From Rhizomicrobium sp. (GTDB lineage Bacteria; Pseudomonadota; Alphaproteobacteria; Micropepsales; Micropepsaceae), in assembly GCA_035551495.1 (NCBI GenBank), contig DASZMT010000056.1, positions 37,290 to 101,289 on the forward strand: a stretch of 64,000 bases of DNA, read 5' to 3'. The position numbers and the translations under genes were made by a program. This document shows, in pieces, positions 16,097-18,239 of the stretch. The notes beneath the pieces were generated by a model, which saw only the letters and a program-made list of their open reading frames with translations, was not told where the DNA came from and ran no database searches. Position 1 is the first letter of the stretch; every line of letters starts with the position of its first letter.

Positions 16097-16292
16097 GGAA
16101 AAATCCCTCTGGTTGCGCGAACGGCGCGTCGCGGAATCCTATCACGCGGAAACCGGCGCATGGCGCCCTCGCTTGGCAAACAGCGTTAGCGGCCGGCAAC
16201 CAACGCGCGCACCACGACAAGGGCGCCGGCAAGCAAACACGACGTGTTGACAGTGAAAGTTTGTCCGGTTTGGAACGTTTCTTTTGTCTTTT

Positions 16293-16307
16293 CGTTGAAA
16301 TTCAACG
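16293..16307. promoter_or_regulatory. Palindrome CGTTGAA-A-TTCAACG in the AT-rich divergent intergenic region (candidate operator)
   Basis: Perfect 7-bp inverted repeat read directly; TTGACA hexamers at 16247 and 16354. Confidence 0.5.
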
Positions 16308-16377
16308 GAAGATGAAATATTAATCTCTGTAAAGAAAAGACGGCTGCGTTGCGTTGACAGCCCTTCGGGAGGACGCG

Positions 16378-16791
16378 ATGGACATGGCGTCTGCGCACGG
16401 CAGCGTGCAAGCCCTTTTGAACGGTCACGAGTGGTATCACATCACGACGCCGCTGGATTACGTGCGGGCCGTGCTCTGGTGTCTCGCGAACTTCCTGACG
16501 GCGATCGCCTATTTCCTCATTCCGTACGAGCTGCGCGCGTGGCGTCGGGCACTGCCGTTTCCGGCGACCTCGCTGATCGTGATGCTGTTCATCGCCTTCA
16601 TCGCGCTGTGCGGCACCTCGCACTTCGCCATGCTCTTCATCATGCAGACCGGCCCGTGGTGGGCGATCCTCCTGATCTACCTTCCGATGGCGGCCGTATC
16701 GCTCGCCACCGTCGCGGTGCTGCGTGTCAACCGGCGCCTCATTCTAAGCGTTTTGCAAAGCGTAGGGGCGGCGCTCAAGGCACAGACATGA
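16378..16791 (+). CDS. Stand-alone ethylene-receptor-like (ETR1-type) transmembrane sensor domain
   Basis: GGGAGGA RBS. ANFLTAIAYFLIPYEL and FIAFIALCGTSH match ETR1 SDFFIAIAYFSIPLEL and FGAFIVLCGATH (recalled) with identical spacing. Three hydrophobic helices. Confidence 0.85.
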   Translation: MDMASAHGSVQALLNGHEWYHITTPLDYVRAVLWCLANFLTAIAYFLIPYELRAWRRALPFPATSLIVMLFIAFIALCGTSHFAMLFIMQTGPWWAILLIYLPMAAVSLATVAVLRVNRRLILSVLQSVGAALKAQT

Positions 16792-18239
16792 GCACATCAT
16801 CCGGCGACGGAGCAGGGGCACACTGGACCACGGCACGGCATTCGCTGGCACGGCTGGAGATGGCGACGACGCGGTCGTGGCGCAGTTGGGCCGGCGGCAC
16901 CGGTGCACTCCTGGCCGGCGCGATCCTGCTGTGTCTCGCGGCGCTCCTGGTGAGCGTGAACGTCACGCAGCTGCGCGCCTCCTTCGGCTGGGAGCGCCAC
17001 ACCGACGCCGTCCTCCTGCAGCTCGAGCGCGAGCGCGAGGCCTTGCTCCAGGCCGAATCCGCGGCGCGCGCCTATGTGCTGGGCGGCGGCAATCTGGCGC
17101 TCGCGACGCTGCAGGACGCGCATGCCGATGCGACGCGCCGCATGGCCGCGCTCGGCAAGCTGACCGCCGACAACCCGGCCCAAGTGGCGCGGTTGAAGGT
17201 TCTCGGCCCCATGATCGCCCAGCGGCTCGCGCATCTCTCCCAGGCGCGGGCGCAGCAGCCCATCCAGACCACCGATCCCGCCACCGCTCGCGGGCTTGCC
17301 GCCAAGGTGCGGGAGAACGAGCGGCTGATGGAGGACATCCGCGCCCAGCTCGACGCGTTCCGCGGCACCGAGATCGCGCTGCTGACGGCTCGGCAGGCGG
17401 ACGCCGACCGGCGCGCCACGCGCTCCATCGGCCTGGCGATCTTCACCGCGCTGGTCGCGCTCGGCCTCGGTGTCGCCGGACTCCTGCTTCTGTTGCGCGA
17501 GCGCACCGCGCAACAGGTCCGCGAGGTGCGCACCGAGCTGATGCACACCCAGCGCCTGGCGCTGATGGGCCAGACCGCTTCGATGCTGGCGCATGAGCTG
17601 AACCAGCCGCTGGCCGCCGCCTCGAACTATCTCGCGGCGCTGCGCCGGCTCGCCTCCGGCAACGCGACGCGCGAGCGGGTCGACGAGACCGCGCAGAAGG
17701 CGCTGGCGCAGATCCAGCGTGCCGGCGGCATCGTCAAGCGCCTGCGCGGCTTCATCGACAAGCGCGACGCCGAGCGTTCGCTGGAGAACCCCGCCACGCT
17801 GATCGCCGACGCGGTGATGCTGCTCGGCACGCTCGACGAGTCGATCAAGCTCGAGACCGTGCTGCCGCAGCGCATGCCTGCGGTGCTGATCGACCGCATC
17901 CAGCTGCAGCAGGTGCTGGTGAACCTGCTGCGCAACGCGATCGAGGCGATGCGCGGCTGCACGCGGCGCGAACTCACGCTCAGGGTGAGCGAACGCGACG
18001 GCGACATGGTCGAGATCTGCCTGCAGGACACCGGCCCGGGCCTGCCGAAGGAGGTCGCGGCACGGCTGTTCCAGCCCTTCGTCACGAGCAAGAAGGAAGG
18101 CATGGGCGTCGGGCTATCGATCTGCCACAGCATCGTCGTCGATCACGGCGGACGGATCTGGGCCCAGGACGCGCCCGGCGGCGGCACGCTGTTCTGCTTC
18201 ACGCTGCCCTCCGTCGAAGAGGCGCGCGAGGCGGCTTGA
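16788..18239 (+). CDS. CHASE3 sensor histidine kinase (FixL/NtrB-like transmitter); start may be 16860
   Basis: TM-CHASE3 (LTADNPAQVARL)-TM; H-box AHELNQPL; N-box NLLRNAIEA; DTGPG; FQPFVTSK; GMGVGL. Confidence 0.9.
   Translation: MSTSSGDGAGAHWTTARHSLARLEMATTRSWRSWAGGTGALLAGAILLCLAALLVSVNVTQLRASFGWERHTDAVLLQLEREREALLQAESAARAYVLGGGNLALATLQDAHADATRRMAALGKLTADNPAQVARLKVLGPMIAQRLAHLSQARAQQPIQTTDPATARGLAAKVRENERLMEDIRAQLDAFRGTEIALLTARQADADRRATRSIGLAIFTALVALGLGVAGLLLLLRERTAQQVREVRTELMHTQRLALMGQTASMLAHELNQPLAAASNYLAALRRLASGNATRERVDETAQKALAQIQRAGGIVKRLRGFIDKRDAERSLENPATLIADAVMLLGTLDESIKLETVLPQRMPAVLIDRIQLQQVLVNLLRNAIEAMRGCTRRELTLRVSERDGDMVEICLQDTGPGLPKEVAARLFQPFVTSKKEGMGVGLSICHSIVVDHGGRIWAQDAPGGGTLFCFTLPSVEEAREAA

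Follow-up and report, generated by a model that had tools for sequence, protein, structure and literature searches.

Can the input domain of an ethylene receptor act as a protein of its own beside a separate histidine kinase, or does a gene that encodes nothing but such a domain mark a receptor that has been broken in two? The question is raised by a locus of Rhizomicrobium sp. (Alphaproteobacteria, Micropepsaceae), located in a stretch of 64,000 nucleotides (hereafter the window) on contig C56 of a source assembly that comprises 132 contigs and 4.35 Mb and is 96% complete. Here, a small protein resembling the ethylene-binding domain (EBD) of the plant receptor ETR1 is encoded immediately ahead of a sensor histidine kinase:

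16378–16791, + strand: stand-alone EBD gene, 137 aa (P0001), from open reading frame (ORF), translation and Pfam ETR1_N match
16788–18239, + strand: sensor histidine kinase gene, 483 aa (P0002), from ORF, domain search and AlphaFold2 (AF2) model
16788–16791, + strand: ATGA, the kinase ATG overlapping the EBD TGA, read directly in the sequence

The EBD ORF runs from the ATG at 16378 to the TGA at 16789–16791, and an overlap of this kind is a signature of translational coupling between the two genes. The first-pass annotation of this DNA had seen the same overlap and proposed a split ethylene receptor, with the caution that an indel near 16740–16860 might have divided one fused protein. Our preferred reading, to which we give a probability of roughly 55%, is that the two genes form one operon-like unit making a two-polypeptide membrane sensor; the conservation of the pair in about 40 related loci suggests that nature also has a two-piece form of a receptor hitherto described as one chain only.

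Whether the split is native was judged from the junction in independent DNA and in related loci. Logan contigs from four soil metagenome runs were aligned to 16300–17300; all four cover part of 16740–16860 and two span all of it, with 0 gaps, and one full-length contig over the junction carries eight substitutions and no indel and thus comes from a different strain. Exact look-up supplied the loci, 11 from genomes and 43 from metagenomes, together with several contigs, and junctions were counted over the 42 non-identical loci of the kinase-coupled clade, other than the window, with readable downstream sequence. The two-gene layout recurs in these 42, so that the pairing, for which the first-pass annotation had asked for a synteny check, is not unique to the window; their EBDs measure 125–138 aa (mostly ~137 aa), and the EBD stop is kept at 47–91% identity. 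The genes overlap by four bases (ATGA, GTGA or TTGA) in 36 of the 42 and by one base (TAATG type) in three, and gaps of +1 and +6 bases occur in one locus each. Stop and start therefore overlap or abut in 40/42, and one locus (L039) has a broken partner. The partner kinases start with ATG, GTG or TTG, and in locus L055 the EBD and the kinase share one frame with a TAA between them. Because the junction geometries differ (−4, −1, +1, +6), a single programmed frameshift site is excluded. In the window the kinase frame is open for a further 357 bases 5′ of its ATG, from 16431, and was listed as a 602-aa ORF that overlaps the EBD in another frame; since the orthologues begin at an ATG or GTG overlapping the EBD stop, we regard the part ahead of the ATG as an open frame of high-G+C DNA and not as an N-terminal extension.

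Protein searches gave the same picture. A word-indexed homologue search returned 50 clusters of 126–165 aa (mostly 133–138 aa) at 52–91% identity, and phmmer, run exhaustively over 1.84 billion representatives, retrieved 49 proteins, of which nearly all measure 77–206 aa and the nearest relatives nearly all 100–160 aa. Fused EBD kinases appeared in the latter at E about 1e-4 only, as EBD-HisKA(_2)-HATPase or EBD-GAF-kinase-REC, and no fused EBD-CHASE3 protein was found among the 1.84 billion representatives. Judged from these sequences, the EBD and the kinase are two polypeptides with coupled translation.

The kinase is laid out in the order N-helix, first transmembrane helix (TM1), CHASE3, TM2, HisKA and HATPase_c:

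16824–16859, + strand: amphipathic N-helix W13-T-T-A16-R17-H-S-L-A-R-L23-E24, from alignment and hidden Markov model (HMM)
16893–16961, + strand: TM1, about residues 36–58, a hydrophobic stretch within AF2 helix 9–99
16989–17399, + strand: periplasmic CHASE3, residues 68–204 (Pfam PF05227, E 2.9e-18)
17424–17495, + strand: TM2, residues 213–236, continuous with the DHp helix (AF2)
17565–18212, + strand: transmitter, HisKA and HATPase_c (Pfam), with the phospho-acceptor His269 at 17592–17594

The CHASE3 domain, which is the least conserved region of the kinase, is flanked by the two TM helices (about 36–58; 213–236), HisKA covers residues 260–320 (E 8e-08) and HATPase_c residues 369–475 (E 5.8e-27), and A268-H269-E270 is invariant in the partner kinases. 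No PAS, GAF or HAMP match was found in the domain search of the kinase, and none between TM2 and the DHp. Among the NCBIfam models the transmitter is nearest to FixL, but its score lies far below the equivalog cut-off, so that we call it no more than FixL-like. The Pfam and NCBIfam searches thereby bear out the first-pass description of a kinase with periplasmic CHASE3, a FixL-like transmitter and no PAS or GAF domain. AF2 predicts one unbroken helix from the last helix of CHASE3 via TM2 into the H-box with His269.

The N-terminal helix is the part of the kinase that sets it apart as the partner of an EBD. When 29 CHASE3-type partner kinases are aligned, Met1, Trp13, Ala16 and Arg94 alone are invariant ahead of residue 250, with Arg17 kept in at least 90%. 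The N-terminal consensus W-x2-A-R-x-[SAR]-[MVLI]-x2-[LFMY]-E stands about 12 residues ahead of TM1, after a variable low-complexity leader, and its positions 1, 4, 8 and 11 (W, A, M/V/L, L) form a single hydrophobic stripe. Across 39 distinct DNA versions of the motif, all four codons are used for Ala, five for Arg, five for Leu and both for Glu, and since synonymous codons vary in this way, selection on the helix acts at the protein level. AF2 models kinase residues 9–30 as helical, with a predicted local distance difference test (pLDDT) value of only about 63 when the kinase is modelled alone. A regular expression and an HMM of the helix plus TM1 match this kinase alone among the 19,706 open frames of the genome, and the EBD-less CHASE3 proteins of relatives do not carry the helix; the closest full-length EBD-less homologue (in genome G009) matches from residue 38 on and is preceded by a 220-aa non-EBD ORF. 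The W-x2-A-R-x5-L-E helix is thus a candidate for a partner-specific EBD-docking element.

The same helix is found on a second type of kinase. In five loci (L016/L072, L026, L037, L041) the EBD is coupled to an 892-aa MASE3-GAF-HisKA-HATPase-REC hybrid kinase, which is otherwise unrelated and begins with the same helix (DPWAKARDAMQKLE). These five MASE3-coupled loci form one clade in the EBD tree (ultrafast bootstrap 96, SH-aLRT 91), nested among CHASE3-coupled sequences, and from such a single nested clade it follows that the EBD gene, along with its partner's 5′ end, was joined to a new kinase on one occasion. Two loci of the MASE3 clade have damaged partners: in L026 (5411–6199) the kinase frame ends at 262 aa, and in L039 (1173–1660) the kinase frame that overlaps the EBD is ended by a stop after 13 codons. 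Frameshift errors of long-read metagenome-assembled genomes (MAGs) could account for both, as could real decay.

Co-occurrence was assessed in 301 species genomes of the window's order, with kinase residues 1–235 as the query for the kinase. The EBD is present in 15 of the 301, all in the window's own large genus, and a first sample had given 0/36 congeners. In 12 of the 14 other EBD-positive genomes, a kinase match that reaches the N-terminus (start at query residues 4–12) directly adjoins the EBD, whereas the strongest EBD-less CHASE3 matches begin at query residues 34–39 and a few weak CHASE3-only ones at 12–18. Database matches with names come from MAGs of Rhizomicrobium sp., Micropepsaceae and uncultured Alphaproteobacteria.

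What, then, does the small protein contribute? It matches Pfam ETR1_N (PF25487) at E 1.2e-11 and 45.1 bits (cut-off 27) over profile positions 5–88 of 97, the sole such match in the whole genome. The AF2 model, built with 46 family members, has a mean pLDDT of 89.3 and a predicted template modelling score of 0.78, with an N-terminal periplasmic helix (4–15), three TM helices (25–58, 62–88, 94–117) and a C-terminal cytoplasmic helix (119–136). Sequence searches of the PDB gave no match for the EBD, Foldseek against the PDB and BFVD gave none better than E = 1.7, and these sequence and fold searches of the PDB found no experimental EBD structure. Loop 1 (RAWRRA) and the tail (RVNRR) are Arg-rich, in agreement with the positive-inside rule, and the protein is therefore predicted to have its N-terminus outside and its C-terminus inside, as in ETR1; with the C-terminus inside, the EBD tail and the kinase N-helix would both be cytoplasmic and juxtamembrane. 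The residues of interest were mapped by alignment with fused bacterial EBD kinases and ETR1 residues 1–136:

16489–16491, + strand: Asn38, at the position of ETR1 Asp25 (alignments)
16609–16623, + strand: C78-G-T-S-H82 on TM2, equivalent to the copper-ligand pair Cys65/His69 of ETR1 (alignments)
16678–16680, + strand: Tyr101, at the position of ETR1 Lys91 (alignment)
16732–16785, + strand: EBD cytoplasmic C-terminal helix (RRLILSVLQSVGAALKAQ), AF2 helix 119–136, with R119 and L126 invariant across the family
ETR1 Tyr32: window EBD Y45
ETR1 Ile35: window EBD I48
ETR1 Pro36: window EBD P49
ETR1 Ile62: window EBD I75
ETR1 Cys65: window EBD C78
ETR1 His69: window EBD H82

ETR1 needs seven residues to bind ethylene, and the window EBD thus keeps all of them but Asp25, i.e., six; C78 and H82 are invariant in the 46 family members. 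The family also has invariants that are missing from ETR1 (H17, W19, Y20, M89 and the T-x-P-W-W loop). The C-terminal helix is, in the model, a candidate contact surface for the kinase.

More distant members of the EBD family, at 39–52% identity, occur in phage contexts:

L020:5001–5381: phage EBD gene, metagenome locus, directly after and overlapping an endolysin gene (phrog_7)
L069:2284–2736 (the same as L102:3920–4372): phage EBD gene, metagenome locus, after a peptidase gene
L070:3968–4369: phage EBD gene, metagenome locus, after a tail fibre gene
L071:2851–3273: phage EBD gene, metagenome locus, before a primase gene
L074:169–603: phage EBD gene, metagenome locus, before a primase gene
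L104:3974–4348: phage EBD gene, IMG/VR
L105:3914–4294: phage EBD gene, IMG/VR
L107:3932–4312: phage EBD gene, IMG/VR
L108:3974–4348: phage EBD gene, IMG/VR
L109:3827–4309: phage EBD gene, IMG/VR

In L020, L066, L068, L069, L071 and L074 the EBD is followed by a coiled-coil protein of 69–120 aa with a C-terminal TM helix; homology of these proteins with the kinase N-helix and TM1 looked suggestive by eye but found no support, as the HMM of the kinase segment reached E ≥ 0.08 only. Eight IMG/VR contigs encode EBD relatives, and in the five listed above a 124–160-aa EBD-like ORF with Asp at position 25 lies about 1 kb downstream of GH108-type endolysin and spanin-like ORFs. The Pfam assignments for this set were made in L104 alone (ETR1_N, E 7.2e-19; Glyco_hydro_108 plus PG_binding_3), in whose EBD positions 25 and 91 are occupied by Asp and Arg. 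Deposited phage genomes (INPHARED) gave no tblastn match for the window EBD or the phage-type EBD, PHROGs v4 holds no family for the phage EBDs, and none was found in BFVD. The phage EBDs may be membrane proteins with a holin/antiholin-like role in lysis that have retained the Cys/His copper site.

Several of these observations weigh against an ethylene-sensing pair. The Pfam score is modest (45 bits vs 80–130 for fused bacterial EBDs), the distribution is patchy (about 5% of the order's genomes), and phage relatives in lysis cassettes without a kinase imply that the fold has a kinase-independent membrane activity. Asn38 is invariant in the kinase-coupled clade and in its nearest phage-linked relatives, TM3 of the window EBD has no Lys at all, and Tyr replaces Lys91 throughout the clade, whereas Lys91 is retained in the fused bacterial EBD kinases that were aligned with it. 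Asn at the Asp25 position occurs naturally in 3.67% of EBDs, and ETR1-D25N showed no detectable binding in a yeast assay (PMC10266040) and about 100-fold lower affinity/sensitivity (PMC11971883); yet ETR1-D25N signals in planta all the same (PMC10266040). In ETR1, high affinity requires Asp25 on helix 1, and Lys91 on helix 3 is tied to signal output. Schaller and colleagues showed that these two residues have evolved in concert and are joined by a polar bridge (PMC10266040, PMC11971883). Their joint replacement fits a coherent variant site rather than decay. On this evidence the window protein is a genuine but divergent EBD. With the copper ligands kept but Asp25 always Asn and Lys91 Tyr, ethylene is plausible rather than established; it is the leading candidate ligand, probably at concentrations higher than those that plants sense.

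The alternative that fares best accepts the complex and doubts the ligand: the small protein would report copper/redox or membrane/ion state, or would be a channel- or holin-like element monitored by the kinase. The Asn and Tyr substitutions just described fit this well, as do the conserved Met85/Met89 and the M-x-T-G/A-P-W-W loop, both foreign to ETR1, and the phage homologues, which adjoin endolysins and spanin-like genes and have class-I-holin topology. Plant ethylene receptors have also been reported to be Ca2+ permeable (bioRxiv 10.1101/2025.10.20.683334). On the other side, the six ETR1 binding residues are strictly kept, including the non-ligand Y, I, P and I, which a copper or channel role alone would not need. 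The loci derive from soil metagenomes, and ethylene is present in soil air. The signalling of ETR1-D25N in planta likewise speaks for ethylene, and we consider a non-ethylene role rather unlikely, if still the most serious competitor. The window EBD does not itself lie in a lysis cassette, the setting of phage class I holins: its neighbours are chromosomal, and the setting is the same in relatives.

A second alternative treats the genes as merely co-expressed neighbours, with the EBD acting alone or under indirect control of the kinase and the N-helix serving another purpose, e.g., membrane targeting. Adjacency and overlap by themselves do prove co-translation only, but the helix is specific to EBD-coupled kinases, moved with the EBD to the unrelated MASE3 kinase, occurs neither in EBD-less CHASE3 proteins nor in any other frame of the genome, and belongs to kinases that stand side by side with the EBD in the 12/14 genomes noted above, all of which makes this explanation improbable. 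The weakest alternative, that the locus is a frameshifted, mis-assembled or decaying single-chain EBD-TM-CHASE3-TM kinase, has a negligible probability: the topology permits a fusion and the kinase frame is open back to 16431, as is common at this G+C content, but gapless contigs from four independent assemblies and 42 orthologous loci that keep two genes rule out a frameshift or assembly error at the junction and lay the first-pass indel caveat to rest, in line with the four junction geometries and the lack of any EBD-CHASE3 fusion among the searched representatives. The split-receptor proposal of the first-pass annotation is therefore strengthened in its genomic part, by the native split, its recurrence, the shared membrane side and the partner-specific helix, and weakened in its ligand, with ethylene less certain than implied given Asn38 and Tyr101.

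In the two-polypeptide sensor that we favor, the 137-aa protein would be a trans-acting ETR1-type EBD of three TM helices, N-terminus out and C-terminus in, with Cu(I) most likely held on Cys78/His82 and Asn38 nearby, and would sense ethylene or a similar small pi-ligand with an affinity probably below that of the plant receptors. The ATGA coupling would tie its synthesis to that of the CHASE3 kinase, on which it would dock both within the membrane and immediately below it; the EBD would make contact through TM3 and its cytoplasmic C-terminal helix, the kinase through the amphipathic helix (W13-x2-A16-R17-x5-L23-E24) and TM1. Ligand-driven movement would then be transmitted laterally to the helix of TM2 and the DHp, unbroken as far as His269, and change autophosphorylation; because of this continuity and the lack of a cytoplasmic sensor domain, a shift in TM1/TM2 packing should reach the catalytic core directly. 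The kinase would signal onward to a response regulator encoded elsewhere, and it is plausible that a ligand input through CHASE3 is integrated with the EBD signal. Physical contact, the direction of regulation and the identity of the ligand are what we infer in this scheme.

A broader generalization can be offered tentatively. The W-x2-A-R-x5-L-E helix might be a transferable input port by which different kinases (CHASE3, MASE3-GAF hybrid) take up the signal of a free-standing EBD, and the stand-alone EBD a general trans-acting copper/gas-responsive membrane switch, employed by bacterial kinases and in phage lysis timing; we regard this as possible and no firmer than that. If it were true, the 137-aa protein would show an ethylene-type sensor reduced to its natural minimum, and the pair would be the first ethylene receptor made of two polypeptides.

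SynEtr1 of Synechocystis PCC 6803 and AzoEtr1 of Azospirillum brasilense are proven bacterial ethylene receptors (PMC11819568). They share with the pair a three-helix ETR1-type EBD, the Cys/His on helix 2 and a histidine-kinase output, and AzoEtr1 is likewise alphaproteobacterial and plant/soil-associated. Each of these two receptors is a single chain that combines the EBD, a PAS or GAF domain and the kinase, has a response regulator gene next to it and keeps all seven binding residues, including Asp25; the window pair, in contrast, has a separate EBD, its own periplasmic CHASE3, no PAS/GAF, no linked regulator and Asn/Tyr at Asp25/Lys91. Where characterized ethylene receptors are single polypeptides, the EBD here ends at the stop at 16789–16791 and its stand-alone form is conserved. 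The copper site has the same geometry in Arabidopsis ETR1 (Cys65/His69 for C78/H82), but ETR1 forms disulfide-linked dimers, contains GAF, kinase and receiver domains and keeps Lys91 pairing with residue 25 (PMC10266040, PMC11971883). Both bridge partners are lost in the window clade (Asn, Tyr).

A stand-alone gas sensor has a precedent in HnoX-HnoK, in which an H-NOX protein is encoded beside, and controls, a histidine kinase lacking that sensor. The window pair would resemble it in working principle, with a small separate gas-binding-type protein beside a kinase, but H-NOX is a soluble haem protein, whereas the window EBD is an integral-membrane copper-type domain whose kinase has its own periplasmic input. 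Accessory membrane proteins are also known to act on kinases via transmembrane or juxtamembrane contacts (MgrB/SafA-PhoQ, MzrA-EnvZ, YycH/YycI-WalK, LiaF-LiaS). To our knowledge, MgrB/SafA, MzrA, YycH/YycI and LiaF are not ligand-binding domains taken over from receptor families, and we know of no equivalent conserved N-terminal docking helix on the PhoQ, EnvZ, WalK or LiaS kinases. Our literature search turned up neither a stand-alone nor a split EBD coupled to a kinase of its own, although ‘EBD-only’ proteins may have been mentioned in passing before.

How ligand binding in the three-helix bundle is transmitted to the output domains of ethylene receptors is debated (PMC10266040). A free 137-residue EBD separates binding from output, and the halves can be expressed, mutated and reconstituted singly; the short conserved helix marks a candidate contact surface, for which about 40 co-evolved natural pairs and one partner swap are at hand. 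The pair should thus be of interest to researchers of both ethylene signalling and two-component systems, and it would extend bacterial ethylene-type sensing to abundant, mostly uncultured soil alphaproteobacteria labelled Rhizomicrobium/Micropepsaceae.

With regard to output, the 4.35-Mb assembly contains 51 Response_reg matches and none of them lies on contig C56, from which we class the kinase as an orphan, as the first-pass annotation had done for want of a regulator nearby. A cognate regulator gene next to the kinase is usual, though not obligatory, for class I (HisKA) sensor histidine kinases; none stands next to the pair in loci L012, L014, L015 and L018 either. Three paralogous FixL-like kinase cores, with 35–44% identity to the transmitter, are encoded elsewhere in the genome (G000:C33:14823–15937; G000:C66:52541–54357; G000:C83:15782–16881). 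Receiver domains directly adjoin the cores on C33, C66 and C83, and the orphan kinase may find its regulator among these receivers or engage in cross-talk with them.

The surroundings of the pair add one further feature:

16255–16345, just upstream of the EBD start: A+T-rich stretch (…gaaattcaacggaagatgaaatattaatctctgtaaagaaaag…) in an otherwise G+C-rich genome

This stretch is likely the regulatory region of the pair, although a sigma-70 consensus scan found no promoter upstream of the EBD, the stretch included; a terminator scan 3′ of the kinase gave none that was convincing. The neighbours of the pair in the window are SDR, amidohydrolase, GNAT, DnaJ and Sel1 genes, and several relatives share the setting SDR, SHMT (amidohydrolase in the window), EBD, kinase, GNAT, DnaJ and Sel1, which argues for inheritance with loss over recent transfer. 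The sole constant element of the chromosomal setting is the EBD-kinase pair itself. Apart from this locus, some relatives have two or three short (230–280 aa) CHASE3-only frames in tandem, all without a kinase domain (G275:C12:52936–55041 and G034:C23:141340–143594, with further arrays at G135:C74:9818–11210 and G134:C52:4154–5481), which by their sequences look like a family of kinase-less CHASE3 membrane proteins.

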